A stretch of DNA of 64,000 nt from an uncultured delta proteobacterium (GTDB lineage Bacteria; Myxococcota_A; Polyangia; Polyangiales; Polyangiaceae), in assembly GCA_963827955.1 (NCBI GenBank), contig CAWHDJ010000018.1:989297-1053296 (forward strand). Direction: 5' to 3'. This document shows positions 3,855 to 36,253 of the stretch, piece by piece. The notes below the pieces were generated by a model. That model was not told the origin of the DNA. It saw nothing but the letters and a program-made list of their open reading frames with translations, and made no database searches. The first letter of the stretch is position 1; each line of letters opens with the position of its first letter. The translations under genes were made by a program, and so were the position numbers.

Positions 3855-4454
3855 TCATGTGGGTCCGCACGCGTCGCCGAAGCAGCCGGCGGGCAGGATC
3901 CACGGGTCGATGATGACGGGCTCGTCGAACGTCGTGGAGAGCGCCGCGCGGATGTCCTCCGCACGCATGCCCTCGCCGTGAAGGCCCCCGAACGGGTGGC
4001 CCTGGTTGGCCATCTGGAGGACGCTTCGGTGCCGATCGATGGTCTTCCCGAAACGCTTCTCGTAGTCGGCGATGCGCTGGAACTGCTCCGGGTTCACAGC
4101 ACGGAGGGAAGCCCACTGGTCGGGGCTGCCGAAGATGCAGCCCGCGCACGACACGCGACCCCAGCCGAGGCGGTACGCGGGGTGCGGGTTGACGTGGCAA
4201 TGCTCGATGAGGGCCCAGACCTGCTCGGCCTTCCAGCCGTGTACGGCCCGCCAGCGATTGATCGTCCGCGGGGTTCTTCCGTTCCGCAGGTCGGTGTCAT
4301 CCGCCTCGAACACCGCATAGCTCTGCCGCTTCTTCGACTCCTCGCCGCGCTCACCCGTCAACACCAGCGTTCGCCGATTGTTGAAGCGCTCCTGGTTGCG
4401 CAACGCGGCTCCGGCGACCATGATTTTGACGTTTGCTTCATGATGCACCTCCAT
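3855..4454 (-). CDS. PAPS-reductase (CysH/DndC) family protein, C-terminal portion only; lacks the N-terminal PP-loop
   Basis: 'LTGERGEESKKRQ' fits the G-x-R-x-x-ES-x-x-R family motif, and 'SCAGC' is the C-terminal Cys pair. There is no SGGxDS motif upstream. Only 250 nt separate it from the divergent antiporter gene. Confidence 0.5.
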   Translation of the reverse strand: MEVHHEANVKIMVAGAALRNQERFNNRRTLVLTGERGEESKKRQSYAVFEADDTDLRNGRTPRTINRWRAVHGWKAEQVWALIEHCHVNPHPAYRLGWGRVSCAGCIFGSPDQWASLRAVNPEQFQRIADYEKRFGKTIDRHRSVLQMANQGHPFGGLHGEGMRAEDIRAALSTTFDEPVIIDPWILPAGCFGDACGPT

Positions 4455-4706
4455 CGTGAGGTCGGTTCGGATTGTGGGAAATGCAGCGTCTCGCTCTCCG
4501 CCGTCCCGCTGAGCCAAGGGCAAAGCCCTGGCCGGCCGCTTCCTCGTCGCGCCCTTCCGGCTCTCGTGCGTCCGGTCTTCGGAGACGACGCGGCACGCAG
4601 GCGACCTGGCGCTTGATCGTTCCCTGCCGAGATCCCTTGCCGCCGCGCCGGCGCCGCGGGAACTCCCCCGACCATGAGCGCTCTCTTCCACCTCCGCGAG
4701 TAGCCC

Positions 4707-5957: not shown

Positions 5958-6072
5958 CGACTGCACGGGTGAGAGGGCGGCGGGGACTACCGGGAAGGGT
6001 AGCGCAAGCGAGGCCACGAACTCGCCGACTACGGTGTTGACGTGCGCTCCATGATGCACCGCCCTTGCGAGA

Positions 6073-8353
6073 TCAGTGTGCGGCATGGGAATGACCCTTC
6101 CGCGTGTGCTTGAGCTTGATGATCCGGAGTCGCGAGAGCGTCGCGGGGTCAAGCTTGAACCAGAGCGGACGACCATGGCCGCCGCGGTCGCTGGGCTTGA
6201 GCCAGCGCCGGGCGACCCAGTAGCGAACGGTCTCCAGCGAGACGTCGAGCTGTGCGGCGACGGCGCGCAACGAGTACAACCCGTCGGACCGCTGGGGAGG
6301 GGTCACCCACTTCTTCTTGACGTTGAGGTCTTCGAGTCGCGCGATTGTTGCGTCGTCGAGCTTGAACCAGGCGGTGGGCCCTGGACCGCTGCGCGCGCTG
6401 GGGACGAGCCAGCCCCGCGCGACCCAATAGTGCACGGCGCCTGCGCGAACCCCGAGGCGCTTGGCGACCCCTCGGAGAGAGTACAAGCCGTCGGAGCGCT
6501 GGTAGGGCGGAGTGCGCGGTACCGACTCAAGAGCGTGACGTCTCCGAACCCCGTTGACGGCCCCCTCTTGCCACTCGTTGCCGAAGCGACTGCGAAGCCC
6601 TTGACGGTTCAGTTCCTGAGCGATCTGCGCGTTCGTCTTCCCTTGCTTGATGAGGGATTGGATCAGCTCAACAAGTGCGCTCTCGCTCGTTGCATCTCTC
6701 GGAGGCCGCGCGCGTGGGACGGTGAGGTCGGTGACGGCGCCCGTGCGCCAGAGGACCTGGATGCGCGTCAACGGCTGCGGGACGTCGATCGGCGTCAGAG
6801 TGACATGCTGCACGAGCATGCGGAGGAGGTTCTTGCGGTCGGCATGCGTCGTCGTATCCGCGTCCCACACCTGCCGCAGGTCCTTGGCGAGCGCGAGAAT
6901 GCGGGTGCGGTCGGACGCCGAAAGGTCGAGCTTGTCCCGCTGACGCGCCTCCTCGTATTCACGCTCGACGGTATCCAGCTCTTGGAGCTTGGAGTTCCAC
7001 TCGTGCTCCAGGGTGCGCGCGACGACGCGGTTGTCAGGATCCACGGCCTTGTAGCGGCGCTCGGCCAGGCGCGCCTCGTACCGCGCGCGATCGAGGCGAA
7101 GCTTCCACTGCTTGTCGAGCTCCGCCGTCTGCCGCTCCGCCTGACGCACCACCTCCAGACCGAGCTCGATCTCGGGCACGTGCACCGTGTCCAAGAAGAG
7201 CTTGGTGACCGCCTCCTCGATGCGGGGCCCAGAGACCATCCAGCAGACCGGATGGCCGCCGCCGTACCTGAGCGGCGCGCGGCAGTCATAGCTGGGATCA
7301 GCATGGCGGCCGACGTAGCGGACGGTCATCTTGCGCCCGCATCGACCGCAGATCGCCAGGCCCTGCAACAGCGCGGAGCCTCTGCCGGGTGCACCGCGCT
7401 GGTCGGGAGCGCGGCGCGGCGCGTTGCTCTGCAACTTGCGCTGGTTCGCCATGAACTCCTCCCACGAGATGTAGGCCGGGTGGTGGTCGCGAATGCACAC
7501 CGTCCAATCGTCCTGCGCGCGCTTGCGGACGCCGCGGCGCACCTGCCCGTTGATCAGCATCCTGCGCGCCTCGTAGCGGCCGAAGGCGAAGGCGCCGGCG
7601 TAGATCGGGTTCTCCAAGACGCGCAGGACGAAGGCGAGGCGCGGAGCGTGCCAACAACGCTCCTGCGTCGTAGGATCGCGTCCCGGCATCTGAAGGCCGT
7701 GCGCCAAGAAGTAGCGCACCACGCCGCATGCACTTCCATTCAGGCGGAAGCGCTCGAAGAGGAGCCGGATCACGCGTTGAACGTGCTCGTCGGGATCGAA
7801 GCGAGGGGTTTCCTGACCCTCGTCCCAGATGTAGCCCGCCGCCGTCTTGAACCGCAGCGCGCCCCGGCGCGCCTTGCTCAACTTTCCGCCGTGCAGGCGC
7901 AGACGCAGCCAGGTCAACTCGACCTCGCTCATGGTGCCCTTGAGCCCCAGCAACAGCCGGTCATCCGGGTTGCGAGGGGTGAAGACCGACTGCTCGTCGA
8001 GCAGGATCACGTCGGCCAGTCCGCAGAGATCCAGCAGCCGGTACCAGTCCGCGGAGGAGCGTGCGAGGCGCGAAACCTCGAGCGCAAAGATGGCGCCGAC
8101 TCGCCCGTGGGCCGACGTCCTCTGCGAGGCGCTTGAAGCCGTCGCGCCGCTCCGTGCCCGCCGCGCTCTGCCCGAGGTCCTCGTCGATGATCTCAACGCG
8201 CTCCGCGGGCCAACCGAGCTCGATGGCGTGTTGCTTCAGAGCGTACTGGCGCGCGGTCGACTCGGGGTGATTGCGCACCTGCCGCGGGTCGGACTGGCGC
8301 GGGTAGACGACCGCTCGGCGCTCCAGGTGGGTCGACTGGATCTTGTCGTTCAT
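6073..8353 (-). pseudogene. large serine recombinase (integrase), split by a single-base frame discontinuity at about 8105-8115. Carries a tandemly duplicated C-terminal ~60-aa HTH-like module.
   Basis: N-terminus 'AVVYPRQSDPRQ...' gives the Y-x-R-x-S catalytic motif in the frame of ORF 7961..9049. 'VGAIFALEVSRLARS', the recombinase domain, the Zn ribbon 'CGRCGRKMTV...C' and a coiled-coil lie in the frame of ORF 6073..8196. The C-terminus contains 'QRSDGLYSLR.VA..L.V....V.YWVAR.WL.PS' twice. Confidence 0.8.
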
Positions 8354-8802: not shown

Positions 8803-9476
8803 GAAGCGCGAGGACTCGGTGATGTCGGGTGCATTCTCCGACGTGCGTCTTCGTGTAGGCCGAGCACCAGCGCTTCCCGAGGTCGCCCGTCTTCATCGGA
8901 AACTGCCGGCGATAGCCGGGCTTGTCGCTCTCGCCGCCCGCGCGCTCGAGCCCGTACGGAGTCTCGAACAGGTACGCCGCTGTCGGGGTTTGGTCGCGGA
9001 GCATCTCGCCCTCGAACCCGCCCACCTTCCAACTGAAGTAGATGCGCACGCCGAACGCCGCGGCGATTCTGGCGGCAATAGTCTCGCGTGCAGGGCCAAT
9101 CCATCAGCGTCGAGCCCTCACGGCCGTCGACGTCGTGATGCCAGAGCTCGATGCGTTCCTGTGGAACGCCGAGCAGCAGCAGCAAGAGCAGCAGCGCGAG
9201 GGAGTCCTTGCCGCCGCTGAAGGCCACGATGATCACGTCATACGAGAACGGGTCGACCGCGGGCTTGCTCGGCGTCGGTGCGAAGGCGACGTGACTCGGT
9301 GCGAACGCGAAGCGCTGCCACGGAAGCGGAGGGGGCGCATCACGTGCGAGCGGGCGCGACGACCGCAGGGCGCGGTCGGAAGAGGCTTCTGCAGTCGCTG
9401 CTCGCAGAAGGGCCCCGAGCGCGGACATCCGGCCCTGGTTGGGGGCAACGGAGACGGGCGCATCGAGGGCCGTCAT
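8799..9476 (-). CDS. PAPS-reductase family PP-loop ATP-pyrophosphatase (DndC/CysH-like), paralog B. Frame discontinuity near 9060; the 3' end is uncertain.
   Basis: 'VIIVAFSGGKDSLALL' is a PP-loop. The protein continues in another frame as 'FGVRIYFSWKVGGFEGEM...GLERAGGESDKPGYRRQF...KRWCS' (the R-x-x-ES motif). The ATG at 9476 overlaps the stop of the upstream gene. Confidence 0.55.
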   Translation of the reverse strand: MTALDAPVSVAPNQGRMSALGALLRAATAEASSDRALRSSRPLARDAPPPLPWQRFAFAPSHVAFAPTPSKPAVDPFSYDVIIVAFSGGKDSLALLLLLLLLGVPQERIELWHHDVDGREGSTLMDWPCTRDYCRQNRRGVRRAHLLQLEGGRVRGRDAPRPNPDSGVPVRDSVRARARGRRERQARLSPAVSDEDGRPREALVLGLHEDARRRMHPTSPSPRAS

Positions 9477-10495
9477 GAAGCCTCCTCGCTCACATACGAA
9501 GTGGCCGGGAGCCAGTCGCACCCCGTTGCCTTCGTGGCGCGCTCTGCCCGGCCGCACACCGGACACGGCATGCGCCGAGGGCGGTAGGGGGTCTCGATGT
9601 AGACGGCCAAGGGCGGCGCGCGGTAGCTGCCGTCGGGGAGCGTCCTGAACCCCATGATGGACAACTTCTTCCCGGCCTTCGTCGGCGGCTTGTTCGCCTC
9701 GAGCGCGGCCGTGCGCGCGAAGTCCCGGGGCAGCTCCCGCGCGAACGTCTGCCAGTCGCCGCGCGAGCCGTACGGGCAGAAGGTGCACGCGCTCTTCCGG
9801 GGCACGGGGAAGCCGAGGCGCTCGATGAGCGCTTGGCCCCGGCAGCGACACAGGTTCCGCTCGATCAACGGGAAACGGTTGTGGCGTCGGGCTTGGCCGG
9901 GCCGCTGTGCGCGTCGCCCGCCGGCGTTGGGGTCGTACGCCGCCCGCCCTTCCTCCGCTGCGTCGAACCCCACCCAGACCTCCACGTCGAGGCCGGAGAA
10001 GCGGTCGTCCATCCACCGCTCGAACCGCTCCACCTTGCCGACGATGGTGCAAATGCGGTCGGGGCCCGAGACGGGGATCTGGCGGCGCTCCTCCAGCCAG
10101 GCAAAGAGGGAGCGGCTTTCCCGCACGGGGTAGCTCGTGGTGTCGAGCGTCAGGAACTCGATGCCCTGGGCGGCGCAGAGCGGCTCGACGATCTCCCGGA
10201 TGTGGCTGTATGTGCCCGGCCACTCGCCCGGGTCGCGGCGCGCGGCATCGCCCACGTCGACGAACACGCAGACGTCGGGCGGCTCTCTCTGCTCGATGGC
10301 GTCGAGCAGCATCGCGAAGCTGTCGAGGCCCCCACCGTAGGAAAGCACACGGGGGCGCCGTGGTGCTGGCGCGCTCGCCGCTCGCAGCAGAGCCCCGAGC
10401 GCGGACGGGGAGTGCTGGCCTTCCGCGCTCGCCGCCCGCAACAGAGCGCCGAGCGCGGACGGCTGTGCGCGCGCGGCGCCAGGCACGGCGCTCAT
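9473..10495 (-). CDS. PAPS-reductase family PP-loop protein, paralog A. Its N-terminus carries two copies of the 'SALGALLRAASA' peptide.
   Basis: 'VLSYGGGLDSFAMLL' is a PP-loop. Several Cys motifs are present (CRCRG, CTFCPY, CPVCG). The ATG at 10495 overlaps the methyltransferase stop (ATGA). Confidence 0.6.
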   Translation of the reverse strand: MSAVPGAARAQPSALGALLRAASAEGQHSPSALGALLRAASAPAPRRPRVLSYGGGLDSFAMLLDAIEQREPPDVCVFVDVGDAARRDPGEWPGTYSHIREIVEPLCAAQGIEFLTLDTTSYPVRESRSLFAWLEERRQIPVSGPDRICTIVGKVERFERWMDDRFSGLDVEVWVGFDAAEEGRAAYDPNAGGRRAQRPGQARRHNRFPLIERNLCRCRGQALIERLGFPVPRKSACTFCPYGSRGDWQTFARELPRDFARTAALEANKPPTKAGKKLSIMGFRTLPDGSYRAPPLAVYIETPYRPRRMPCPVCGRAERATKATGCDWLPATSYVSEEAS

Positions 10496-11265
10496 GCCGC
10501 ACTGCTCACACGCGGGCGGATCGCGCTCCGCGCCGGTGGCGTCAGGAGCCGGGCCTCTACCGCCACGCGGCACCAGTGGGGGACGATGTCCACGGCGATG
10601 CAGCGCAGGCCCATCGCCCGGCAGACCGTCAGCTCCGGCCCCGTGCCGAGATACGGCACGACGACGACGTCCCCCCGCCGGAGCTTCGCCCTCTCGCGGA
10701 ACACCCACTCGACGAGCGCTACCGGCTTCTGCGTCGGTCCGAGGTGCGCCACGCCCGTCTCGCTTGCGCGTGCGACGCCGCGCCAGAGATGCGTGAAGCG
10801 ACGGATGGGGGTGCGGAGGTTGGTCCACGCCAACTCACCGTCACCGCCGTCGTTGCTGCCCGTTTCGGCGCGCTTGTCCCAGAAGAGCCACCCGCGCTGG
10901 TCGGGGAGCCGGCTCGCATAGTGGTTGGCGCCCCAGAGCACGATCCGAGGGAAGTGGAGAAGGTGCGACGGGTCGAACGGACGATCGTTGCCAGCCATCG
11001 GAGGCCAATCGTTCGCGCGCGGCCTGCCTCGGCCGCCGACCAGCCGGCCCCCGCGCCCGCGCCGAGCGCCGTCGAACCGCTGGCGGGGATCGAACGGCGG
11101 GTCCGCATGGACCAGCGCCACGTCCTCGGGCCGGAGGCCGAGGGCGCGGAGCCGTCGCGGAACGACCTCGCGGCAGTCGCCGGCGTGCACTTCGATGTCG
11201 CCGTCGTTGTAGACGAGCCCCGCCTCGGCCCGCGCAGCGCGAAGCCGCGCGGCGAGGCCGGACAC
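10492..11265 (-). CDS. beta-class N6-adenine/N4-cytosine DNA methyltransferase (CcrM/M.PvuII-like arrangement)
   Basis: Motif order is 'VALVHADPPFD' (DPPY/F), then 'GPTQKPVALVEWV' (HPTQKP-like), then 'VVVPYLGTGPELTVCRAMG' (FxGxG-like). A GTG start with an AAGGTGG RBS lies just after the TAA of the upstream gene. Confidence 0.75.
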   Translation of the reverse strand: MSGLAARLRAARAEAGLVYNDGDIEVHAGDCREVVPRRLRALGLRPEDVALVHADPPFDPRQRFDGARRGRGGRLVGGRGRPRANDWPPMAGNDRPFDPSHLLHFPRIVLWGANHYASRLPDQRGWLFWDKRAETGSNDGGDGELAWTNLRTPIRRFTHLWRGVARASETGVAHLGPTQKPVALVEWVFRERAKLRRGDVVVVPYLGTGPELTVCRAMGLRCIAVDIVPHWCRVAVEARLLTPPARSAIRPRVSSAA

Positions 11266-11281
11266 GCGCCCGGCGCCCACC

Positions 11282-12404
11282 TTACGCCTTGCCCTTCTTC
11301 GCGAGCATCGCGAGCAGCTCCTCGACGATCGGGCGGCTCTCGGCGATCCATTGCACCAGGCTGCGCCGCATCTCACGCGTACCGCCCTTCTCGAGCCGCA
11401 CGCGGGTGTCTTCGACGTCGAGCGACATTTCGCCCGAATTCACGGGCCACGGCGCGGCCGGCAGCTTGGCGAGGAGTGCGCGAGCACGTCCTACGGCGTC
11501 CTTCGACGTCGCCGCCGCGGGCGTCGCCTTGTTGCTGGCCATGGACGCGTACCGCAGGCCCAGGGCCAGGGCGAGGCGGCCATTGAAGCTCAGGTCGCCG
11601 CTCGGGATGCCGGCTTGGTCGAGCATCTGCTCCGCAGACTGCTCGCTGCCCCGCCGCTTCCAGAGCTCCTCCGCGTCGTCCCGCGCCTTCCACCGTTTGC
11701 GAAACCCCGCAGCCCATTCTTCGTGCGTGCGAACGGACCGTGCCGCGTTCGCTTGGATGGCCGGCACCGCCTCGCCGGCGCGGTGCAGCCGCACCCGCAG
11801 CGCCCCCGCGAGACGAGCGCGGAGGTTGAGCCCTTCGCGCGCCACGCCGGCCTCGTCGAGGATCGCGTGCAGCCGCTCTTCCAGCACCGGGCACTGCCCG
11901 TCGACCTCGGGCTCGTCGGGGTAGTCTGGCGCCGGCATCGCCGGCATCGCCGGCGTCGCTGGCGTCGCCGGGGGCGCCGCGCTCTCTTTGGCTGCATGCA
12001 GCAGCGCCGAGAGCGGCGACGGAGCGGCCCCACCGACGGCCACATCCGGCGCCGGCGCCGCGGCGCGCTCAAGGGGGAGCGCCGCGGACGAGAGGACGGT
12101 CCCGCCTTCACCCCGCGGGCAGAGAGCAGCCTCGGCCGGCGTGAGGCTCTCGCTCTCCGGCCGGAGCTCGATCTCGTGGGCGTCATCGAGCGAGAGGAGC
12201 GCGCCGTGGATCGCGTCGAGGTCGAAGCCCTTGGCGATCAGCGCGCGCACCACGTCCGGGATCCGCACGACGAGCGAACGGGGATCCGCCTGGCGCCGCA
12301 GCTCGGCGAGGACGGGGAGCCGGGTTGGGCGTGCCCAGGTCACGGCCGGAGGCCCTCGTGGTCGAGATCCACGGCGTTCGCGATGAGAGGGCGGCGGCGG
12401 TTCA
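11282..12404 (-). CDS. hypothetical protein with an internal 'SPLSALLHAAKESAAP' motif. Apparent frame discontinuity near its 5' end; a likely ATG overlaps the stop of the giant gene.
   Basis: Protein-like from 'VTWARPTRLPVLAELRRQ...'. An alternative ATG-initiated frame ('MNRRRPLIANAVDLDHEGLRP') overlaps the TGA of the upstream gene. Confidence 0.45.
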
Positions 12405-15400
12405 TTTCGGGACGACCGTGCAGATCGTGGCCGGCTCACCCTGGCTGTTGACCCCTTCGCGCACGATGGTCGCGACGACCTCGGTCTTGACCTTGCCCCC
12501 CTTCGTCTTGACCTTGATCCTCTCGCCGGGCGTGGGGGCAGGTCCCTCGACCGCGATCCCCCATTTGTTGTAGCCGAGGCTCTTGTACTCCGCGAAGGGT
12601 CGCTCCACGGGCGTAGACGTGGCCCTCCCTGCTGCCGCAGAACCGGCCCGGCCCGGAGCGAGGTCCCCGAGGCCCATGGCGTCGAGCAGCGCGTTGACCA
12701 CGTGCGCCTGCCCGCGGACGGTGTAGGTCATGCCGACCCGTTTGGCGGAACCCTCCGGGTCGAAGATGACGCGGCCGTCGGGCGTCTGAAGCTCGTAACG
12801 GCCCAGCACCATCTGCATCGAGTTGCCGGGCAGCGCGCGGGCGGCGTCCTTGAAGACATCGTCGGCGAACACCATGTCGGACACGACTCGGACGTGCTCT
12901 GCGCCGGCTCGCGCGGGCGCCGGCGCCGGCCGCGGCACGAGGTCGCCCATGCCGAGCGCCTCCATCGTCGCGGCGAGCCCCTTGCCGTAGATCCAGTGAG
13001 AGACCCCGGATTGACCAGGAAACTCGACGCCGCGCATCCGGTCAAACTCGATGTCGCCCTGCGGGGTCACGACGGAGAACGCACCCAGCTCCAGCTCCTT
13101 GACCGTGTTGCCCGGCATGTCGCGAAGGATGCGGAGGAACTGCGTGTCGCCGTACAGCTTCTCGCCGCGGCGCTGGACGTGCTTCCTGAACTCGTCGGTG
13201 GGCTCCTCGGCGCGCCGCGGCAGGCTGTTCTCGTCGGGCTCCTCGAGACGCGGCGCCGGGGGCGTGCCCCCCACGTTGACCGGGGGCGTGGCGGGCCGGC
13301 GCACGATGACCGAGGGTTGGACGCCCGCGGCGGGCGCCGTAGAGCGGTCTACCCGGATGGTCGCGATGAAGGCGTCGAGCGCCGCTCTCACGTCTGCATC
13401 GCTCTTGCCTTGTGCGACAGCGGTCTTCGCGACGGCGGCGATCCGAGGCGTGTCCAGCAGGTTGACCTGCACGCCTTGCAGCGCGGCTTGAGCGAGGCGG
13501 TTCGCGCGCCTCTCCTCCGCCGCGGAGAGCGCCGTGCGCCGCGCGCCGCCCGCCTCCCCCCGCTCGGGTGCGGTAGGCGCGGTCGGCGCCGCCGAGATGA
13601 CCTCGTGGTGCGGATTGCGGAGGCGCGTGATGACCTCGTGGAGCGCGTCCCTGAACAGGTCGGTCGAGACGGCGCCGGGGGAGGTGACGGCCGCCTCCAA
13701 CTGTTTGATCGCCGCCTCGACGTCGGGGACCACCAGCGTGTTGCCCTCCATCGCCCCCGGAAGGAAACGCGCGACCGCCGCACGCTGCACGGTGCTCAGT
13801 CCCTCCAGCCTGGTCCCCGCGCCCGCACGTACCGCCGCAGAAGCCGCGGGCTCAGGCCCCCCACCAACGCGTGCCGCGACAGGGGCAGCGGGCGCCGAGC
13901 GCCGAGCGGCGGCGCTGGGTCCCGTCTCGTCCGCGTCCGTCTCGCCGGCCTCCTCCCTGCCGGTCTCCGCCTCGCCGGTCTCCGCCCCGCCGGTCTCCGC
14001 CTCGCCGGCCTCCGCTCCGCCAGCCTCCGCCTCGCCGGCCTCGGCTCCGTCGGTCTCCGCCTCGCCGGCCTCCGCTCCGCCGACCTCAACCTCGCCAGCG
14101 TCCTTCTTCTTCTTCGCCTTCAGCAAGGCAGCCCTGGCAGCCTTCTGCTCGGCCGTCGCGCCGGAGAGCAGATCGGACGGCAAGCCCAGGGCCCACCAGT
14201 ACCGGGCGCACGCCAACAGCGCGCCGTAGGAAGCATCCGAGATCGGCGCGAGCGCCAAGAACTCTTCGTAGCCGGCCCGGGTGGGCGGGAGGATCGCGTC
14301 GAGCCGCTGTTTCACGCCGACGGTGAGCACGCCGCCGCGAACACCGGGAACCTCGAGCTTGTCGGCGTCGAGGGTGAAGCGGTCTTGGAGGTCGTTTAGA
14401 TGGGACGTGATGTCGGCGCCGTAGCGGGCCCACATCTTCGTGACCCACTCGTCGGTCGCATCCACCCAGTTCAGCTCCCGCAGGACCTTCTCGGTGGTCG
14501 TGGAGAGATGACGCGCGAGCTTGGGCAGGATCTCCCCCCGCATGACCCCGTCCATGCGCACCTCATCGTCCGCCGGCCAGTCGCTCGCGTCCGTGATGCG
14601 GTGCTCGGGGAGCAGGTGCAGCTCGCCGATCTGGGCGAGCCTGACGACGCGCCACTCCACCTGACCGACCGACCGAGCGCCGATGGTGTAGCCGTCGCGG
14701 ACCCTGCCGTACTCGTCGAAATTGAGCACGCGGTGGTCGCGATCGTCAGGGCTCTTGGTGCGCAGTCCCTCGTAGAGAGGCGCGACGGCCTTCTCGTAGA
14801 CCTTGACCAGCTCGGAGGTCCCGCTGGGGGTCTCCCTGTTCTCGGTCTTCGACGTGGGCACGAAGACCAGCATCGTGTGGTCGCGCGCCGCTTGGGCCCA
14901 CTCTCCCCAGGGCCATACCTTGGGGTCGACCCGGGAGACGTCGGCCAGGCGCAGCTCGCCTTCGGCCCGGAGGCGATTGGCCCTCCCAAGCTGCTGCTCG
15001 GCTTCTCGCGGTGCGTTGCCGCATCGGTCGAATTGTGGCGTTCCGGCTTCCGGTTGGGCCTCGGCCCATTCGGCGGGCAGGTTGAGCAGCTCCCCGACCT
15101 TGAGCGGCTTCCACGCCGGCTCGTGCTTCTTCTTCCTCTTCCGCGGGTTCACGCGGTCGAGCTCCTCCTCCCAGTTGTCGCGGTGGTAGGCCCCGAGCTT
15201 TCTCGCGATCGACACCTTGCTGTCCCCGGGCCTTACCCGGTACAGCGCTTGCTCTTCCGTCTTCTTCTCCTGCTGCTGCCTGGTGCCCTGGGCCTCGATG
15301 CCGGGCCGGTCCGCGGCGCGTGCCATGCTGAAGAAGAACCCCGCCGTGCGGAGCGTCGCCGAAGCATTCGCAGCGGTCTTCGCGTCCTGCTCGGCCTTTC

Positions 15401-18400
15401 TCTTGGCCTCCACCGCCGCGAAGAGGAGCCGCGCCTTGACGGGATCGCACGCGATCATCGCGAGGATCTCTTCCGGCCCCATGTTCATTTGCGCGCCGGG
15501 GTTGTTGGTCTCGCGCGCTTGCCCCTCGATGAGGTCCGCCATCCAGGCCCGCTTGCCCTGGATGAGCGTAAACTTCATGGAGTCCGGGAAGCACTTCATC
15601 ATGAAGTAGTAGATTTCGACCCGGGAGAACTGGTTTCCCTGTCGCCAGGCGCGGCCATTTCGCTGCTGAAGCGTCGCAGGGTCCCAGGGCAGGTCCACGT
15701 GATAGACGCGGCACGTGCGCCTCTGGAGGTTGATGCCTTCATACGCCACCTGATTCGCGATCACGACGTCGTACTTCGGCTCCACGGCGGGGAACGTGGT
15801 CGGCATACCCGTCGCCGGATCCAAAAACGTGAGCTCGGGCGTGCCGTTGAAGTCGGCGGCGATCCGCTGGCGCGCGTCCGCCGAATGCTCGGGGTTGTGG
15901 GGGTCGGCGTTGAGGATGGCGATGCGGGACCTGTCGATGCCCGCTTCCTCGAGCACCATGCGGAGCCACACGTGCGCCGCGATGCTCTCGACGAAGACGA
16001 TATGGCCGCAATCGGGTCGCTCCAGGATCAGGTCCCGTACGGCCCGGAACTTCGGGCTGCTTGGAGAGCGGACGCTCTCCGCGTTCTCCCAATTCCAGAG
16101 CGCCTCGAACACCGGGGCGCCGGTATCCTTGTCCACGCCGACTTGCTTGCGGTCGTCCAGGTTCGCGTGGATACCGACGAGCCCGAGCAGCGCCAGCAAG
16201 CCGAGCGGGTTGCCCAGCTTGGGGTTCGCGAGCATCGCCTCGATCCTCTTCGCGTAGTCGAGGCGCTTGCGCTCCTGCTCGTCGTCGCCGACGACCTGAA
16301 TCTGGCGCGAGATCGGCTTCGGGAGCTTGAGCCCCTCGTCGAGGCCGATGGCGAGCGGGTAGCCCATGCGATCGCACACGTTGCCGAGCAGATCGAGCCA
16401 CGTCCTGCCGTCCCCGAGCCGGTGCTGCGCGAGGGCCACGTTGCGCGCTGCCGCCTTGAGCCTGGGAGTCTCGTCCTCGGGCGGCTGGAGGGCGTTGCCC
16501 TCCGAATCCGGTGTCTCCTCCGGGACGAGGCCCCGTGCGGCCTGGATGCCCTTCTCGACGTCGACGGAGGCCCAGCCCCATACCCGAGCGATTCCGTCGA
16601 CCGATCGTCCCTGCTTGTCGGTGAGCTCCAGCCACGCCGCGTGCCGCACCGGCGCGCCGGCCTTCTCCACGTCCTCTGCGGTCTCAAATTCGCCGTACCA
16701 GAAGATGGTGTCGCGCAGCTCGTGCAGGTTCATGAACCCCACGCAGGCGGATGCCGTCTTGGCGTTGCCCACCATGTCGACGACGATCTTCGTCTCAAGG
16801 CGGCAGTAGCGGTCGATGAACTGCTCGGGGTCCTCGATACCCTGACGCGCGAAGGCGTCGTGGGCGATGTACTGAATGAGGTTGTAGAACTCGAGCGGCG
16901 AATTTTTCGCGGGCGTTGCGGAGAGGAGCACCACGCCCGCGCCGCCGGAGCGCCGGCGCACGGTCATGGCACGGAAATCAAGCTGCCACGCGCGGTTGGA
17001 GCCCTCGCCCGCCGCCCCCATAAATTTCGGCACGCCGAATTCTCGCGGCGCGGGCAGATAGAGATTTTTGTAATTCTGCGCTTCGTCGACGATCAAGAGG
17101 TCGACGCCGAGCTGGTCCCAGGTGAGCCCCGGGTCGAACCTCTGGCCCTTGGGGAGTTGGAGCTTGCTCGCGACCCACCCCGCCGTGCTCTCCTTGAGCA
17201 CGACCTCCTCGCGCTCCGTCAGGCCGTCGTCGCTGCGCTCGTCCTCATCCTCCTCGTCAACCTCGACCTCGCCGCCGGGGCCGATCTTGCCGCCGATCTC
17301 GGTGTCCTTACCGCTGGTGCGGCCGGGGTGCTTCGCGGCGTTCCTGCGGCGGAGCACCAGATTCCGCTGGATCGCGGCGGTCTGCTCGACGTAGTCGACG
17401 ATGTCCCCCGCGACATCTTCGTGCGGATGAACGACGAGTACGTGACCAACATGACGTCGAACTCGCCGGCTTGGAACCTCGTCCACTTTTCGGCGCGCTC
17501 TTCGGGCGTGTCGGTCTCGCTGGTGTGTTTGCCGGTGTTGCGACCCGTGGAAATGACCTTGCGATTGGCCCCGATGACGCCGACCCGGTAGTCCGGGAGC
17601 GCCAGCGCAAGCTCCGCGACCCAGTTCCACACGATGCTGTTGGGGACGACGATCACGGGCCGCTTCGCCCAGCCTTCTTGGCGCGCTGCCGCGAGGATGG
17701 CGGCGCCCGTGTACGTCTTGCCGACCCCCACATCGAACGCGACGAGGCCGCCGCGGTTCGCCACGACACGCCGCGCGCCCGCGTTCTGGTGGGGCCTCAG
17801 CGTGACGCGGTTTCCCCACCGCGCGAGGGGCAGCGGGTCGATCGCGTAGCGCTTGGGCTTGTACCCCTGGAAGGCCCGCTGGTAGGCCCGTTCGATGATC
17901 TGCTTGCGACCTTCCGTGGCCGAGCACCAGGCTTTGAACGACTTGTTCCAGGCGTCGGCCTGCTCGACACGGATGTTGTCGATGTTGTCGTCCTTGTTCT
18001 TCTTCTGCGGGCGGAACAGGCTGCGGTCGTGGTTAATCCAGCCGAGGACGTTGCCGACGTCGTCCTGCCAACCTCCCTCGATGTCCTCGTAGTCCTTGCC
18101 GACTTCCTTGACGAGGCCATCCACGCGCTCCAGGCGCACCGTCCCGACCTTCGCCAGCGTCTCGATCCAACACTCGACGAGTTGGAGCGGGATCCACGCC
18201 TGCTGGGGGGAGAAGGAGTCCTTCGTGATGTCGTCGAAAAATGCCGGCTTGATGACGTCCAGAAGCCGCGCAACTTGGTCCGCGGCCTGCTCGTCCCCAG
18301 CGTCCGCGCGCTCCTTCGCGCGGTCGTGCTTGTCCCAAAGGTCGCCGGCGAAGTAGTCCTCGGGCGGCACGAGCTCGCCGGGACGGTCCTCGCACCAGCC

Positions 18401-21400
18401 TGCGTCGAACAGCGCCTGCAGGTCGTCTTCGACCTCCGAGGCGTGCAGGACGCGGTGCTGCTTGTAGAGGTGCGTGGACCACGCTACCGGGTCGTCCTCC
18501 GGCCCGGTGTAGGTCGGCTCCCACTTCGGCGGCGTGCGCAGCGCCTGAACGAGATTTGTCGACCCGCGCTCGTAGCCGGTCAGGAACTTCTGCGCGCCGG
18601 GGTCGTTGCCTTCGGTGGCGAGCTTCTGGAGGCCCTTGTCCTCCGACGGCGGCCCGTAGGTCTTCGACCACGCGGTCAGCGCGTCGTGCAACTCCCTCCA
18701 GGCCAGGAAGGGGGTCTCGCTCTTCTGTGCAGACACGCCCTCGAGGAAGGTGGCCAGCCGGGTGCCGAGGGCGGAGGCCAGCTTGAGCCGTGCCACGCTC
18801 CCCACCAGCGTCGCTGCCAGAGACTTCGGTCTCGGTGCAGGCGGCTCCGCGGGCAAGAGCGGCGCGTGGACGCAGCCGGCGCAGATGGGCCGTTCGCGGA
18901 ACGCGGGCAGGCCCTGGAACTCGCCGACGATCTCATAGCCGCCGCCGTAGCGCCCGTTGGGCTTCACGGTGCCCAGTACGTGGCTCGGATTCTCGACGAA
19001 GTAGTTGCCCTCGACGATGCTCTGGTCTGCATCGTCGATCGCCGAGCTCTTCCCATCCCGCGACTGCAGCACGCCCCCCCGCGAGCGGAAGAAAATGAGG
19101 TCGACCGTCACGAGGGCCTGCGGGAACAGGTTGCTCGGGAGCCGGAAGGCACACATGAGGTGATGCCGGAGCAGGACCGTCGCGCGGAGGTCCGTGGCGC
19201 CCGCACCCGTCATGAACCCCGAGGGGATCAGGAAGACGCCGATGCCATCCTTGGCGAGCAGATCGAGGGCGCGACGGAGGAAGTATTGCCAGGACTCCTT
19301 GTAGCCCGCGTAGTCGGCGCTGGTGTCCTCGTGCGCCGCTTCGCCTCGGACGCCATAGGGCGGGTTGGAAATGACGAGCCCGAGACGCCCGCGCCACTGG
19401 TCCTGGTTCTCCGTGACCCACTGCTCGAAGGGGCCCTCGAACAGGTCGAGCTTGGGCCGCATCGCGCGCAGGATCGCGGCCGAGACGTGGCTGAACTCGA
19501 CGGCGTGCCATCGGAGCTGCTCGTAACCCGGGCCCTCCATCGTCCGGGGGAACCGCCCGACTCCCGCGCTCGGCTCGAGCGCATCGATCGTGCCGTTACC
19601 GATGGTGGCCAGCGCGGGGAAGTAGGGCTGGAGAACGCGCCCTACTTCACTACACACCAGCGAGGGGGTATAGTATTCGTGGATCAGGCCACGCTCTTCC
19701 GCCTGCATCCCGGGCGGCATCCTCTGCACAAACTCCGCGAACGTGTGGCGCCGGCCCTTCTTCTCGCCGAGCCCGCCCCAGCCCGAGTACGCGCCCAGGG
19801 TCAGCAGCTCGGCGTCCGTGGGCGGCCGTGGATTCTTGTTCAGCTCGTAGGCGAGCCACATCGCCGCCAGGTTCGCTTCGCGCCTTGCCTGCTTCTGCCG
19901 GTGCTCCTCCGGCGTGCCCTCCGTGTAGACCCGCTCGAGGGTCTTCGCCGTGTCGAGGGGCAGCGGGCCCGCTCCGATCGCGGCCGCGACGGAAGCCAGT
20001 GCTTCCGGCGTGAGCGTGCGGGCCTCTCCAGGCGTGGCCGATGCGGGCGCTCGCACATCGGGCGTGGCCGCCGACGACCCCATCGCCGTGTTCACCCAGC
20101 GATCCGGCTCGCGCCCGCCCCCGCTGACGAGCTTGACGCGGCCCCGCGACACCAGCGCGCGGGCCGCCTTGCGGACCGCCTCGACGGCCGTGCCGAGCCG
20201 CTCCGCAAGCTCCGCGGAGGACCGCGGTGCGTCCAGCGTGGCTTCCAGCACCCGCTCCTCGAGCGCGCTCTGCGCCTCCGCGGATAGAGGCCGTGCCGAA
20301 GGCGCGGGCTCGGCCCCGGACCGCGCGGAGGGAACGCCCGCGGCGGCGGCGCCCGCAGCCGTGAGCATGCCGGCAAGCCGCGAGACGGACGCAGGTGCAG
20401 CCGCGGACGGTGCAGCCTCTGCCGGACCGGCCTTGGAGCGCTCAAGCGCCGCTCGTCTGATCTCCTGCCAGTCTGCGAGGCCGTGCTTGAGCACCTTCGC
20501 GGCTTCGCCGCTCTTGGTGAAGAGCGTGCCGATCTGCCGCTCGCTGCCGTCGAGGTCGCTGGTGGAGATCCACCATCCCATCCCCGGCCTGGCCTCGATA
20601 TGGAACACGGGCGGACGCGTACGAAGCGGATCCTGGGCGAGAGCGTACTCGAGCGCCGCCCGGACGCTCTTCCCAGCCTGGGCGAGCGCATCCCGCTGCG
20701 CGTCGGCGCTGCCCGCGGCAGCCGGCTCTTCGAAGACGAACTCAGGCCCCACGCCATCGGGCGACAGCACCTTGAACCCCTTGTCCGTCGGCACGACCAG
20801 CGTCTCGTCGGAGAGCGGCAGCCAGGTCACTTGCCCGTCGGACTTGCTGGTGGGGTCCTCGACCTTGAGACCGATCTCGTGCAGCCTCACCTGCTCAAGG
20901 ATGCGGGCGGAGGGCACCTGGGGGCCCCTTCCCCGGTCCACCAAGTAGAGCCGGGTCCCCTTGGGGAGATGCTTGAGCGCATCGACGGAGTTGATGAGCG
21001 GGAGGCCGGGCCGCGGGACACCGGGCGTCGCCGCCGCCGGCAGCTCGGAAGCACCGCCCTTGGGCACGCCTGGTCCGTGCTTCCGCGCGATCTTCATGAC
21101 CTCGTTGGCGAGCACCTCCGAGTCGTTCAGCGCGAGCTTGACGGCCAGGTAGACCCGCCGCGTTTTCTGGGGGATCTTCCACCAGTCGTCCTGCGCGGTC
21201 ATGTCGATGAGGCGATCGATTTCGAGCGCGGTCTCGTCATTCGCCAGGAGCGTCCTCAGAGCCCGCAGCTTCGGGGACACCGGGGGAGCTGCCACCGGCG
21301 CCGCAGCGACCTGCGCGAGCCGCTCATCGACGTGCATCTCCCTCAAGAGGAGCGTCATCGCTTCGGGGGGGCCGAAGACGGTGTGGGACCGCCCGACCTG

Positions 21401-23242
21401 GCCCGGGAAGGTCTTGCTCGTGGGGTCGAGCTGGATATCCCCCGCCGGCGTGTGCAGCGTCAGCATCCCGTACGCGACGTGCTCCACTGAGAACCCCGGC
21501 AGGCGGCCCGCTGCGCGCGCGAAATCCGAGTCGACGTAGATGCGCTCGCCATCGCGGTCGAAGGTCCAGTCGTCTCGGTGCGGCGGGACGTCATGCCCCC
21601 AGCGCGTGGGCTTGTGCTCGTTGTAGGTCTTGCGGAGCTTGAACGCCGTCGTAAGGCGCTCCAGCAATTCGGAGACCGCCTCGACGTCGCAGCCGAGCAT
21701 GGTGGCGATCTCTTCCAGCGTGCGGTACTCGCCGAGCGTCGCGGCAAGCACGCCCTCCTCGGTGGCGCAGGGAGTCTTCGCCTCCAACCCCTGGGAGAGC
21801 GCCTCGGCCCGATGCTCGACGACCGCTGCCGCATCCTCGGCGGTCGGGATGCCCGCCGGCGCCGCCGGTGCCGGCTCGGCGGCGAGTGCCGTTTGGGCGT
21901 CGGCAAGAAGCTCCGAGAGCCCGGAGGCCGGCGCTCTGTCCTGCTGCCGGGACGAAGGCACGGGAGCGGCTTCGGCGTTGCCCTCGGCGCGGCTCCAGAC
22001 GCCGTACTGCTCTTGGAGATCCACGCGCCCGCCGCGCGCGACACCGAACATGCGAAAGGCCCCCACCTCGCCTTGGAGCTTCGCGGATGTCGTGCGCAGG
22101 AGCTCAGACCGTTGCCTTGCAGGGGCCTGTTCGCGCTCGATGCGGTTCAGCAGACGGCCCAGCGCTGCGCCCAACGTCTTGCCGTCGCTGCCGAGCGCCC
22201 ACGCCGCTGCCACCTTCTCGCGGAGGAAGCGCAAGAGGTGCTCGCGGCGCTGCGCGTCGATTGCCTCGGCCTCGGCCAGGAGCCCGGAGGCGCGCTCGAA
22301 ACGCTCGACGGGAGGGGCGTCGCCGTCCTCGATGTCCTGCGCGAGCTTCTCGAGCGCGACCGCGGCGGCCCGGCCCTCGCTGAGCTGGTCGGCCCGTTGC
22401 CGCTTCGCTCGCAGGTCGGCAATGGCAGCCGCGGGGGATGCCGTGGCAGCGTCCACTACACGCGCGGCGTCCTCCTCGTCCTCACGTGATGCGGGCCGCG
22501 GCGGCGGGATCCGGACCGCGAACCCGGGCGACACCGCCGGGGGGGAGGCGCCTGCGGCAGACGGCTCGATCACGGAGCGCCGCACCCTTGCGGTTGCGCC
22601 CTCGACCGCCAGCCTCTTCCATGCGTCCGCCGCAGCATCGGCACGCTGTGCGATGCTTACGGCGCGGGGCAGGTCGACGATGGTGCGCTCGGCGCCTCCT
22701 CGGTCTCCGCCCATCGCCTGGATCGCGCCGATGACGCCCTCCCGGTCGGGCCCGACGTCGACGAGCACCACGTCCCAGAGGGTGCTCGGGGGCGCCTCGG
22801 GGATGAGCGGCCTCGACGGCAGGTAGTACGCGGTGAGGCCCCTGCCAATCGGCATGGCGACGATGAGCTTCTCGCGGACGAGATCCGAGAGGAGGTTCAC
22901 CGCGGAGGGGTCGTCGAGCGCCGCGAGGATCGCGCGCTGGCTCGCTGGGCCCTCGGAGAGCATGGAGAGGATCCGCTCACGGACCTCCCGCACCAGGGCC
23001 GCTTCGCGCTCGCGTTCTGCCGCGCGTGTGGCTTCCGTCGAGGCGTAGCGGGCGGCGCGCTCTGCATCGGTCTCCAGGCGCCACCAGCCCGGGTGGGTGA
23101 ACGGCGTGCGGTCGCCATCGTCATGCTCGATGACGACGTAGCCGTCCTTGCTCCGCACCTCGACGACCACGCCGGGCGGGCTACGCGGGGTCACGGTGCT
23201 GTTGTCGACGACGCGGTCGCCCACCTCGAAGCGCGGCAACAT
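12402..23242 (-). CDS. giant multidomain protein (~3,600 aa). Contains an N6-adenine-type DNA methyltransferase module, an SNF2/DExx-box helicase and a long repeat-containing C-terminal region. It is DarB-like. One frame discontinuity in a G-run at about 17405-17415 joins ORF 17219..23242 to ORF 12402..17927.
   Basis: 'LVISNPPYGVRGE' is the NPPY motif IV. 'AFDVGVGKTYTG' is a Walker A. 'LLIVDEAQNYKN' is motif II. 'QRNGRAWRQGNQ' is the helicase motif VI (SNF2). The C-terminus holds (GEAEx)n tandem repeats and an internal duplication ('...GDIEFDRMRGVEFPGQSGVSHWIYGKGLAATMEALGMGDL' / '...GRVIFDPEGSAKRVGMTYTVRGQAHVVNALLDAMGLGDL'). Confidence 0.75.
13941..14098. repeat. 15-nt tandem repeat encoding (A/T)E(A/T)GE units within the giant gene
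   Basis: Read directly: 'gcctcgccggtctccgcc' units are repeated about 10 times. Confidence 0.7.
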
Positions 23243-26200
23243 GCCGATCTCGGACGCACGGATGGGCGAAGCTCGGCCGTGCGGGACACGAACTCGGCCG
23301 GGCGCTCCACGAGCACCTGGCTCTCGAACTGGCGCGCGATGTCGAGGACCTTATCGGCGAGAGCCTCGTCACCGCGCAGGTGCCGGATCGCGGCTCCGTA
23401 CACCACGCGGGTCTTGATGATGTTGTCCCACCAGTGGTCCTGTGCGGCCCCCTCGATCGCGGCTTCGACCTCCCTTGCCCGCGCCTCGTCTCCGAGCAGG
23501 CGGGTGAGGGCCTCCAGCATCGGGCTCGGCACGGCCGAGCGGAGCGTGTACCAGCGCTCGTCATCCTCGACGCGCATGTCGAGGATGCCTTCCTCCCGCA
23601 TCTGCCGAAGCAGGCCGACGACGCGACGACTCTCCTCGCCGGAAGCAGTCACGCCGGCGACCTCGCGCGTGATCACGCGAAGAGGGGCCCCGCCTCGGCG
23701 CTCGTCGAGGTACGCCACGATCTTCGCGCGGGCGGCGTCATCGTCATCCTTGCCCTCGGGCGGCCGAGGGGACGAGGACGCCGCGGCCTCGGCGGTGGCA
23801 AGGAGCTGCGAGAGGGGGCTGCTGGTGGGTGCCGGTGCGCTCGGCGGGCTCGGCTCGGGCGGCCGAGGGGAGGGCATCCGGAAGCCCGTTGCTGCCGGTG
23901 CGCTCGGCGGGCTCGGCTCGGGCGGCCGAGGGGAAGGCATCCGGAAGCCCGCTGCCGGGGCCGCGGGCGCGGTGGCAGGCCCCGGCTCGTCGGCGCGGAG
24001 CTCGAGCGACGCGAGCCTCTGCGCCACGCCGCCGGGCAGCGTGGACCACTCCGTGATGTCCTCCGGCGTGTAGCCCAGAAGCTCGAGCCGCCAGGCGAAT
24101 GCCGGATCCTCGCCCGCGCGGCGGAGCGCTTCGGCGATGTCGCGGTAGTTCGGCGACATGTCGGCCTCTGCCACGGAGCGCGTTTGGGCCCAGCGCTCGC
24201 GGGTGGTGGGCCCGCGCTCTCCGTGCTCGATCCCCCAGGCCGCGCGCTCCAAGATCGAAGCGGTTCCGCGGCCCTCGCCCGCTGCCCTTGTCCGCAGGCG
24301 ATCCGCGGTCGTCATGACGTGGTCGAGCCCGACGCCGCTCTTTTGGCCGCGAGCCTCATCTGCGATCTGTTGCAGCACGACGTGTGCTCGCGCGTCCCCG
24401 GCGAACTCGCCCACGCTGTCCAGGTACCGCGCGAGCGCGATCTTCAGCCGCACCTCTCCCGGCGCCGGCGTCGCGGGCGCCGCCGGCCGCGCCCACCGCT
24501 CCACCGTGCGGAGGAGAGCGTCGACCGTCGGAAAGTCCTCGCGCATGTTCGACGAGATCGAGTGCGCCGCGCCGGGGTCCTTGCCCCCGCCCCAGTGCAC
24601 CGCTTGCGCGTGGAACCAGAGCCGCCCGAGACCCTGCTTCTCGGCCCAGGGCGTCCCCAGGTGCGGCTTCACCGTCCATCCCCGGTCCTTCAGGCCGTTG
24701 AGAAGCATCGCCTTGACGGTGCGGAAGGCGGGGGGCTTCGGGGCGCGGGGGGGAGGCGAGGGGCGCGCCTCGGTCGCCTCCGCTCCGCGAGGAGTGGGCG
24801 CGACGGCGAGCCAACGTGCGAGGGTTGCAGGCTGGGGCGTCCCCTCCGCGATCCAGCGCGTCATCACTTGCGCGAGTGGTTCGCCGATCGTGAGCCCTGC
24901 CGCGGCGAGCGCAGCCCGGTGGTGCAGCATCGCCGCGTGCGCCATCTGCCAGCGCGCGGTCTCCTGGCTCTGCTTGTCGGTCTCGTCGAGGAGCCTCGCC
25001 TTGTGCGCAAGCGCCTCGGGGCCCGGGTCTCGAAGCGCCTCACGAATGGCGGCCCACTTCGGGTGCTTCGGTGCGCGCGATGGACCAGGCTCGGCCGTCG
25101 GCGTAGACGACGCTGCCGCCTGAGCGGCTGCAAGACGCTGCGAGAGCACGGAGGTCGGCCCCGCGCCGTGCCCGGACGAGGGGACCGCCGGTTCCGCCGT
25201 CGCCATCGGCGTCGAACCCGCCACGCGGGAGGCGATGCTGTAGAAGTTGACCCCCGATCGCGGATCGTAGCGGGTGTCGACCACCTTCTCCTTGGCGAGC
25301 TTGACCAACTCGTCGCCGACGCGTCGCCGGTCCTCCGTCGCCGTGCCGCCAACGTCGTCGTGGACCATCCGCAGCGTCGCCTCCCCCACGCGGGAGAGGT
25401 ACGTGAGGATCGCGATCCGGCTCTTCCCGGCCTCGCCCTGAAGCTCCTCGGTGGGGACCTTGTTGGGCGCGAGCGGCGCAGCGGATTCCTGTGCTTGGAG
25501 CGCGGCATCCTCGCCGAACTCGTCGACGATGGCGGCGACAACCCGGTCGAGCGCCTCGTCCTGGGCGCGCTTCGTGTGGGCGTCCACCGGCCGCTTCAGA
25601 GCCCTCACGGCGCCGAAGAGAAAGCTCCGCCAGTCGCTAGGGTGCTGCCGCGCGAGGAGCCCCTTGAGGGTCGCGCTCTGTGCCACCCCTGCGAAGCGCT
25701 CGGCAGCGGCGCCCGTCTCGAAGGTGAGTACGGGGCTCCCGTTCTCGCGCTGGACGACGAAGCGATATCCCTCGGGGGTGGTTGTCACCAGGCGGGCCAC
25801 CCGAAGGTTCCCCACGGGGACCGACTCTGCCGTGCCGCCCGTGGGGACCTCCGCCCGCATCGCTGCCCCTACGATGCTGGAGACTTCGTCCTCGCTGACG
25901 CCTGCCTCTCGCGCGGCGTCGAACGCCTGCTCGGCCCGCGCCGACTCTTCTCGCGTGCTCTCGGGGAAATGCTTCGCGCGCACCGCCACGAGCGCTTCCC
26001 CAAGCCGCACCCGGGCTTCCGCCTTTCTGGCGTCCGCCCCCACCACGGGGAAGCGGGCGGCATCGAGACGGTCCGCCACCTCGCCGAACGAGCTTCCCCG
26101 CTCCTCCAGGTAGAAGACCCTCGTCTGGCGAACGTCAATCGAGAAGGTGATGCCGTAGGGCTTGGACTCCCCGGGGGCGTTCGAATGGAAGGCGACGAAA

Positions 26201-28419: not shown

Positions 28420-28535
28420 GGCTTCCCCGAGCGTGCGCCGCCGCTCGATGCGCGCGCAAGGCGCTTACCCGCCTATGGATTTCACTTATCAGCCAGGATC
28501 CGTGGAAGTTCCTAGACCCGTTGTGGGATGATCCC
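28420..28535 (-). promoter_or_regulatory. conserved ~115-bp upstream element, copy 1. AT-rich invariant core TGATAAGTGAAATCCATAG in the gene orientation. Ends at the ATG of the 1,742-aa gene.
   Basis: Aligns over its full length with copies at 33713..33828 and 36254..36367. It is the only AT-rich 19-mer in this 70% GC region. Confidence 0.6.
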
Positions 28536-33630: not shown

Positions 33631-33712
33631 CACGCCACCCGCTCGGCGACGACGTTGACCGCGGACGCGAGCGATGCTCCGCTCGCACCGCTCGCTGTGG
33701 GCGAGAAAGGCA

Positions 33713-33828
33713 CGGCTTCCCCGAGCCTGCGCCGCGGTCCGTGGTGCTCGCAAGCGCCTTACCGTCTATGGATTTCACTTATCAGCGCGGAGCCGTGGAA
33801 GATCCAACGGCGGCCGTGGGATGTTCCT
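33713..33828 (-). promoter_or_regulatory. conserved ~115-bp upstream element, copy 2, about 85 nt 5' of the hydrolase ATG
   Basis: Aligned by eye with copies 1 and 3. Confidence 0.6.
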
Positions 33829-36252: not shown

Positions 36253-36253
36253 C

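Follow-up and report, generated by a model that had tools for sequence, protein, structure and literature searches.

A DarB-like methylase-helicase gene with an interrupted reading frame in an integrated island of an uncultured Polyangiaceae bacterium

Do two overlapping open reading frames (ORFs) in an uncultured myxobacterium encode two proteins or one giant DNA-modifying enzyme, and what would such an enzyme be doing in a bacterial chromosome? The question is raised by a window of 64,000 nucleotides (nt) from a member of the Polyangiaceae (GenBank assembly GCA_963827955.1, contig CAWHDJ010000018.1, positions 989,297 to 1,053,296), by which we mean the whole stretch of DNA that was analysed. 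An initial annotation, made from the letters alone, had seen at 12402-23242 a single polypeptide in which an N6-adenine-type methyltransferase is fused to an SNF2 helicase, in the manner of DarB of phage P1. On balance, we think it likely that the locus is one gene (~3,613 amino acids, aa) of the DarB family of DNA methylase-helicase dyads in an integrated mobile island, and that the break in its frame is an error of the consensus sequence; the protein may have the DNA-marking role suggested by its family.

The reading frame and its break

As assembled, the gene is divided between two minus-strand ORFs, 23242..17219 (2,007 aa) and 17927..12402 (1,841 aa), which lie in different frames and overlap by ~700 nt. 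The two features concerned are as follows.

12402..23242, minus strand: whole methylase-helicase gene, two overlapping ORFs in the assembly; homologues are unbroken across the site
17405..17409, minus strand: G5 run between codons 1943 and 1945 (..FIRTKMSR / GDIVDYV..), where the frame breaks off

If the G5 run (C5 on the plus strand) is lengthened by one G, the two join into a single ORF of 3,613 aa with no internal stops, which bears out the earlier expectation of a continuous frame of ~3,600 aa apart from a G-run indel near 17410. The motifs listed with that expectation (NPPY, Walker A, DEAQ box and motif VI) all fall within the repaired ORF. The upstream ORF reads ..FDVMLVTYSSFIRTKMSRG and then continues past the run as Arg/Ser/Thr-rich text, while the downstream ORF gives meaningful protein only from ..GDIVDYVEQTAAIQRN. 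The coding phase, plotted from the G+C content at third codon positions (GC3), changes exactly at ~17400, and both halves of the gene have kept a strong codon bias (GC3 0.84-0.87).

Frame continuity was examined in 84 homologous loci, 72 of which carry the region as one uninterrupted ORF of about 1,600-2,800 aa. Database homologues, 45-60% identical and nearly all from Myxococcota, give single alignments over aa 1103-2192 that cross the break at aa ~1944, and in the multiple alignment the repaired query is gapless at the site (RTKMSRGDIVDYV vs RTRMNESAVTEYA). The closest relative, metagenome contig L001, is 87% identical in DNA around the break and reads CGCCAGGAC at the run, where the window reads CGGGGGAC (over a wider stretch, ATGTCGCGCCAGGACATC vs ATGTCGCGGGGGACATC); since L001 has one more base there, the base that the window lacks is missing exactly at the run. 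Together, the homologues, the single ORFs in 72 loci and the extra base of L001 indicate that the ancestral gene was a single ORF. Judged by these sequence comparisons, both ORFs derive from that one gene. An apparent 'frameshift' tail shared by three proteins (P0016, P0020 and P0021) was set aside, as it proved to be a truncation with the frame unchanged.

Domain architecture and homology to P1 DarB

The repaired protein can be divided into seven segments, all on the minus strand.

19943..23242, minus strand: N-terminal extension, nearly orphan (aa 1-1100)
18863..19942, minus strand: conserved pre-methylase region (ANL..YSGWGG, HEYYTP), then gamma-type N6-adenine methyltransferase (aa 1101-1460)
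17843..18862, minus strand: inter-domain region, conserved in the Myxococcota family and aligned with DarB (aa 1461-1800)
15324..17842, minus strand: SNF2-type SF2 ATPase/helicase with motifs I, II (DEAQ), III (SATP) and VI (aa 1801-2640)
14109..15323, minus strand: post-helicase domain, common to 61 related loci (aa 2641-3045)
13929..14108, minus strand: acidic low-complexity linker (GEAE/TG), encoded by a tandem DNA repeat
12405..13928, minus strand: C-terminal tail with two copies of a ~70-aa module and a terminal beta-barrel (aa 3106-3613)

The methylase itself spans aa ~1150-1460, and Pfam recognises Eco57I/N6_Mtase at aa 1278-1386 above curated cut-offs. Just N-terminal of its core lies the 'TP motif' HEYYTP (aa 1188-1193), which aligns with SEYYTP of DarB. 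Motif I is LEPSAGVGRF (aa 1222-1231); within it EPSAGVG (aa 1223-1229) is invariant in the family alignment, as is NPPYG (aa 1293-1297, window 19352-19366). Both the S-adenosylmethionine-binding motif and the catalytic motif are intact; absence of the S-adenosylmethionine-binding residues had been named at the outset as a ground for refutation. Its position had been misjudged: the methyltransferase does not occupy the N-terminal ~700 aa but sits behind an extension of ~1,100 aa, and a 700-aa construct would miss it.

Once the single base is repaired, a repair that the homologues support, the SNF2 module follows C-terminal to the methylase in the same polypeptide. It carries Walker A FDVGVGKT (aa 1836-1843, 17714-17737), VDEAQN (aa 2052-2057, 17073-17090), LSATPAKNS (aa 2107-2115) and motif VI QQRNGRAWRQGN (aa 2526-2537, 15633-15668). 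The last of these had been written as QxxGRxxRxGQ; the motif is present, but its final residue is N rather than Q. Pfam places SNF2-rel_dom at aa 1828-1943 and Helicase_C at aa 2488-2536, again above curated cut-offs, and methylase motif I, NPPYG, GxGKT, DEAQ, SATP and QRNGRxxRQGN are all conserved in the family alignment. A Pfam search found neither a nuclease nor any other further catalytic domain in the giant protein, and profile searches of the PDB returned generic relatives only (SNF2 ATPases, and the EcoKI HsdM, StySJI M and TaqI methylases). A helicase insert of ~110 aa (window 16344-16676, aa ~2190-2300) is found only in the closest relatives, L001 and L091, and is missing from other family members and from DarB.

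Over its core (aa ~1100-2640) the protein is collinear with P1 DarB. An hhalign comparison of the myxobacterial family profile with DarB residues 46-1566 gave a probability of 100% (E 4.4e-66, 1,245 columns), and BLASTP against DarB produced four collinear segments, among them methylase 1187-1386 / DarB 88-273 and helicase 1750-2619 / DarB 769-1604. A tblastn search of phage records matched P1 and P7 darB together with many 'DarB-like antirestriction' genes. The stretch ANLAAM..YSGWGG (aa ~1120-1157) aligns with DarB residues 46-90 and is a candidate for the LPD36 domain that dyads have N-terminal of the methylase. These alignments establish true homology to P1 darB throughout methylase, inter-domain region and SNF2 helicase, and the proposed DarB-like fusion is upheld.

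The two proteins share, in the same order, a pre-methylase region, the TP motif, a gamma-type N6-adenine methylase, a helical inter-domain region and an SNF2 helicase. They differ in that identity is only 23-29%, and the target has ~1,100 extra residues at its front and a different C-terminal part of ~1,000 residues, against a total of 2,255 aa in DarB, whose role is defence against restriction. P1 DarB is packaged into the virion head via DarA/Hdf in an enterobacterial system, whereas the host here is a myxobacterium and such packaging genes were not seen in the window.

DarB is the archetype of the 'DNA methylase-helicase dyad', a module third in prevalence among those of the polyvalent proteins of phages and conjugative elements, in which the TP motif precedes a methylase assigned by Iyer et al. 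(2017) to the EcoKI/TaqI-like class, and which reach 12,242 aa (PMC5512222). The target resembles these proteins in having an EcoKI/TaqI-like methylase upstream of a SWI2/SNF2 ATPase within a very long multi-module protein (PMC5512222), with accessory modules shuffled among relatives. Unlike them, it showed none of the usual partners (zincin protease, ADP-ribosyltransferase (ART), ArdC-N, DdrB-ParB and MuF), and its accessory modules are orphan. A second known counterpart is snf2, a methyltransferase plus SNF2 helicase gene that forms part of the backbone of the ICESa2603 family of integrative and conjugative elements (ICEs) as well as of enterococcal plasmids (PMC12942858). This too is a core gene of chromosomally integrated elements; its host phylum is different, the homology is remote, and a conjugation module was not identified in the island studied here. 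The giant proteins of podophages (Parlo; Bcep22-like) are of comparable size and have a DarB-like methylase region, but are located in virion-associated phage modules, and matches of the Bcep22 type cover only ~30% of the core.

The size of the gene had been called unusual, which does not hold. A relative sharing the N-terminal module of the target (P0124) has 3,353 aa, and the DarB homologue of Serratia phage Parlo has 3,764 aa (PMC6606913). Relatives occur in 1,992 plasmid records; megablast of the gene itself against plasmids and phages gave no match. Fusions of a methylase to an SNF2 helicase have been described as a module that is widespread in phages, in plasmids and in ICEs (PMC5512222, PMC12942858).

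Outside this core the protein is far less familiar. The extension had two word-index matches only, and 77 matches among 1.84 billion representatives, nearly all to two small modules (aa ~560-660 and ~745-840) that also occur as free-standing proteins of ~90-130 aa and in other giant methylase-helicases. It contains three weakly winged-helix-like stretches (22853-22987, 21623-21760 and 20123-20263), for which Pfam helix-turn-helix scores are sub-threshold, a recurrent module of ~70-100 aa (21350-21556) and another module of ~95 aa (20717-21010). The structure model of the post-helicase domain is an SH3/Tudor-like barrel plus helices and found no informative fold match. The tail has a single database homologue (P0123, called as a separate ORF in L001), and its model (predicted local distance difference test score, pLDDT, of 65) matched no fold. 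The description of this tail as repeat-rich was overstated. The sole tandem DNA repeat of the gene lies at 13936-14103 (period 15/30), in the linker, and a ~70-aa module recurs in two to three diverged copies (aa 563-631, 3358-3427 and ~3450-3525), those in the tail falling at window positions 12963-13172 and 12669-12896.

The island and competing explanations

The window has a GC content of ~70%. On its left side a Na+/H+ exchanger gene (4707..5957) marks the chromosome and adjoins a gene for a large serine recombinase; to the right of ~41.6 kb an extracytoplasmic function (ECF) sigma factor, two Ser/Thr kinases and a PEGA protein are typical of a myxobacterial chromosome. From ~6.0 to at least 36.3 kb all genes lie on the minus strand. 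The methylase-helicase gene sits in an integrated island of at least 30 kb, bounded by the recombinase, in a myxobacterium judged Nannocystaceae-like, and its neighbours are these.

6073..8353, minus strand: large serine recombinase, left island edge, frameshifted
9473..10828, minus strand: PP-loop protein like phosphoadenosine-phosphosulfate (PAPS) reductase and SspD (SspD-like, E 2e-10)
10492..11376, minus strand: second, small N6/N4-type DNA methyltransferase ORF
23191..28419, minus strand: upstream 1,742-aa ORF without family match, with a strong coding signal
28512..29855, minus strand: PAPS-reductase-like PP-loop protein (phrog_424, E 3e-25)
31626..33753, minus strand: cell-wall hydrolase gene with SpoIID domain and an apparent frameshift at ~32520
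33862..36294, minus strand: DUF6884 protein, PADLOC candidate PDC-M57A, which keeps synteny with the methylase-helicase in both closest relatives

The PP-loop neighbours reported at the outset are therefore real, as the two listed matches confirm. The idea of an unusual chromosomal homologue fares worse, given an integrated island with a serine recombinase and a module class that has already been described. A weak BrxP-like PAPS-reductase match was also seen at 3855..6176 (E 6e-8), and a weak PP-loop ORF was noted at ~4136-4376. The PP-loop ORFs (two clear, one weak), the small N6/N4 methylase and the DUF6884 protein may form a DNA-modification gene set. The 1,742-aa ORF overlaps the start of the giant gene by 52 nt and matches no family in Pfam, PHROG, PADLOC or NCBIfam, although it has short modules in common with the giant protein and with L001 and L091, in shuffled order. 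On those two metagenome contigs, from heavily fragmented assemblies, the order is DUF6884, shuffled giant-protein modules, methylase-helicase, tail. A proline-rich ORF lies between the PAPS-reductase-like gene and the hydrolase gene.

How the break at the G run arose is best judged against the rest of the window, in which at least five further apparent indels were seen, some within the island and some beyond it. The recombinase gene has a one-base insertion, the extra C in GGCCCAC at ~8105-8111: its catalytic N-terminus (..YPRQSDPRQ..) sits in another frame, and removing one C gives a Resolvase domain match over 1-144 of 145, as opposed to 61-144 unrepaired. In the hydrolase gene (33753..31626) the coding phase changes at ~32520 without a stop, an apparent indel within a stretch that was judged NlpC/CHAP-like by eye and had no Pfam support. 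In the flanks outside the island, the GC3 phase switches without a stop in the upstream frame at ~640 (plus strand), ~2080 (minus strand) and ~46100 (plus strand). PDB searches for homology support of the frameshift at ~2080 found no match, and the three flank indels therefore rest on codon phase alone. Because the indels are not confined to the island, the simplest explanation is an error of assembly; their density is similar within the island and beyond it, and the switches in the flanks suggest that the assembly carries roughly one indel per 10 kb.

The strongest competitor, which we regard as unlikely but worth taking seriously, is that the frameshift is real, the gene having lately become a pseudogene within an island that is immobilised and decaying. 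The recombinase and hydrolase genes of the island likewise appear frameshifted, frames are broken in about 12 of the 84 related loci, which come from public assemblies, and the truncated 2,007-aa product would be without helicase motifs II-VI. However, apparent indels have a similar density outside the island, both halves of the gene retain their codon bias and intact catalytic motifs, amino-acid identity to the nearest relative is 60-75% on each side of the break, and only one base of a homopolymer is affected, a classic consensus error. From the similar indel density, the codon bias and the intact motifs we consider a consensus indel to be a good deal more probable than a pseudogene. If the break is such an error, the full-length protein is probably made in the cell.

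The role of that protein has to be read from its family (PMC5512222). The SNF2 motor would use ATP to move the enzyme along the double-stranded DNA of the element, and the linked methylase would mark adenines during this movement; newly arrived or newly replicated element DNA would thereby be shielded from host restriction, and the winged-helix-like and other small modules could serve as DNA- or partner-binding adaptors. The nearby PP-loop proteins and the second methylase would fit an island that invests in DNA marking. An anti-restriction role is plausible by analogy, and we infer it at that strength only, because for DarB itself the mechanism 'has not been defined' (PMC11109961).

That gap in the DarB literature counts against our preferred interpretation, as do several other observations. 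Effects of plasmid-borne darB can be DNA-mediated artefacts (PMC11109961). Searches of the window with Pfam and PHROGs found no capsid, portal, terminase, relaxase or type IV secretion system gene, and IMG/VR holds no close relative, the match L088 being only a fragment of 148 aa where a contig ends. No fold could be assigned to about 45% of the protein (extension, post-helicase domain and tail). Finally, three of the apparent indels sit in island genes, which would also fit a decaying island.

A different role, that of a host-protective defence enzyme (restriction-modification-like, DISARM-like or a single chain like type ISP) rather than a counter-defence of the element, is in our view quite improbable and less likely than a role in the element. 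It draws on weak PADLOC and NCBIfam matches to DrmD, ZorD, DpdE and type I methylases, and on neighbours that include SspD/BrxP-like PP-loop proteins and the DUF6884 candidate. Against it, neither the gene nor its neighbours contain DrmA/B/C, PglX/PglZ, HsdR/S or a nuclease domain, the relatives are typical of plasmids and phages, and the order of methylase then helicase, with collinearity over the full length, is that of DarB and not of type ISP. Type ISP enzymes are ordered nuclease, helicase, methylase, target recognition domain. Type ISP, I and III restriction-modification were all rejected, since there is no nuclease family (Mrr/PD-(D/E)xK), the methylase precedes the helicase, and no HsdR/HsdS or Res is found nearby. 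In DISARM, too, an SNF2-like helicase (DrmD) works with an N6-adenine methylase (DrmMI), but these are separate proteins in a five-gene defence operon; membership was rejected on the NCBIfam DISARM_DrmD score (65.7 bits against a cut-off of 610) and on DrmA, DrmB (DUF1998) and DrmC not being among the neighbours. BREX was dismissed as well, with only the weak BrxP-like match seen and PglX/PglZ/BrxC not found.

Least credible is that the G run acts as a programmed -1 ribosomal frameshift or a phase-variable switch between truncated and full-length protein. As read from the sequence, exactly the repaired protein would result if tRNA-Gly slipped by -1 on G GGG G, but G5 runs are common (221 in the window, fewer than in shuffles) and short for slipped-strand switching, the canonical heptamer is absent at the site, the downstream RNA fold is not unusual (z = -1.18), and homologues, including the closest relative, read through with no run there; programmed frameshifting was rejected on the run frequency, the weak fold and the relatives.

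Relatives across the Myxococcota

Genomes scanned with the single protein gave no relative; when a profile was used, species-representative genomes yielded 230 confirmed relatives. Loci were compared for the best 80 of these 230, almost all from Myxococcota. Among those 80 loci, at least six copies lie in the complete chromosome OZ245034.1, a metagenome-assembled genome (MAG), at least six in one Nannocystis MAG, at least four in a Polyangia MAG, and N. exedens DSM 71 and N. bainbridge have at least two apiece. Within a single genome the copies have 12-22 kb in common, at a DNA identity of 70-95% (for example L010/L030/L037/L038/L039/L050 on one MAG chromosome, L053/L054 and L077/L078), and so mark families of large elements. 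For most conserved neighbours at these loci neither Pfam nor PHROG gave a match; the remainder are tyrosine integrases, large serine recombinases, a C5 methylase, M23/peptidoglycan-binding hydrolases and a ClpP-like protease. The neighbour proteins of the window were not found in the 80 related loci, and its island is therefore not the same element, though the themes of recombinase, extra methylase and wall hydrolase are common to both.

In one related locus, L004 (9010-10998, 9082), helicase homology ends at the codon equal to aa ~2571, and the truncated copy is abutted there by the convergent gene of a large serine recombinase. Three other MAG contigs (L017, L026 and L036) end at the same codon, after helicase motif VI. 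Insertions into the helicase gene may have a hotspot at this codon, and the recombinase next to the truncated copy in L004 recalls the integration of Tn1806 into snf2 genes (PMC12942858). The same locus holds a diversity-generating retroelement (13222-15145; RVT_1, bAvd, HRDC) a few kb from the related methylase-helicase.

A bolder proposal, which we advance only tentatively, is that the methylase-helicase is the one recognisable gene of undescribed large integrative elements (at least 20 kb, multi-copy) in Nannocystaceae/Polyangia, whose other conserved genes have no Pfam or PHROG match. The island of the window, with its DUF6884 and PP-loop proteins, two giant modular proteins and orphan modules, would be a divergent branch of these, and the giant proteins could serve as a DNA-marking and entry apparatus unlike phage packaging or classical conjugation.

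For annotation, the consequence is that the two 'ORFs' are one gene, and that further genes of the window will also be split by its several probable indel errors. A soluble, catalytically intact relative would offer a further approach to what the dyad does, while opening no new question; there is more left to explore in the multi-copy dark elements of Myxococcota, a possible insertion hotspot within the helicase gene and the orphan modules. The DarB/polyvalent methylase-helicase family is extended into the Myxococcota, where it is strikingly multi-copy and linked to islands made up almost wholly of unknown genes. Myxobacteria are hard to transform, so methylases borne by such elements, where they mark DNA against host restriction, could help in building genetic tools for them.

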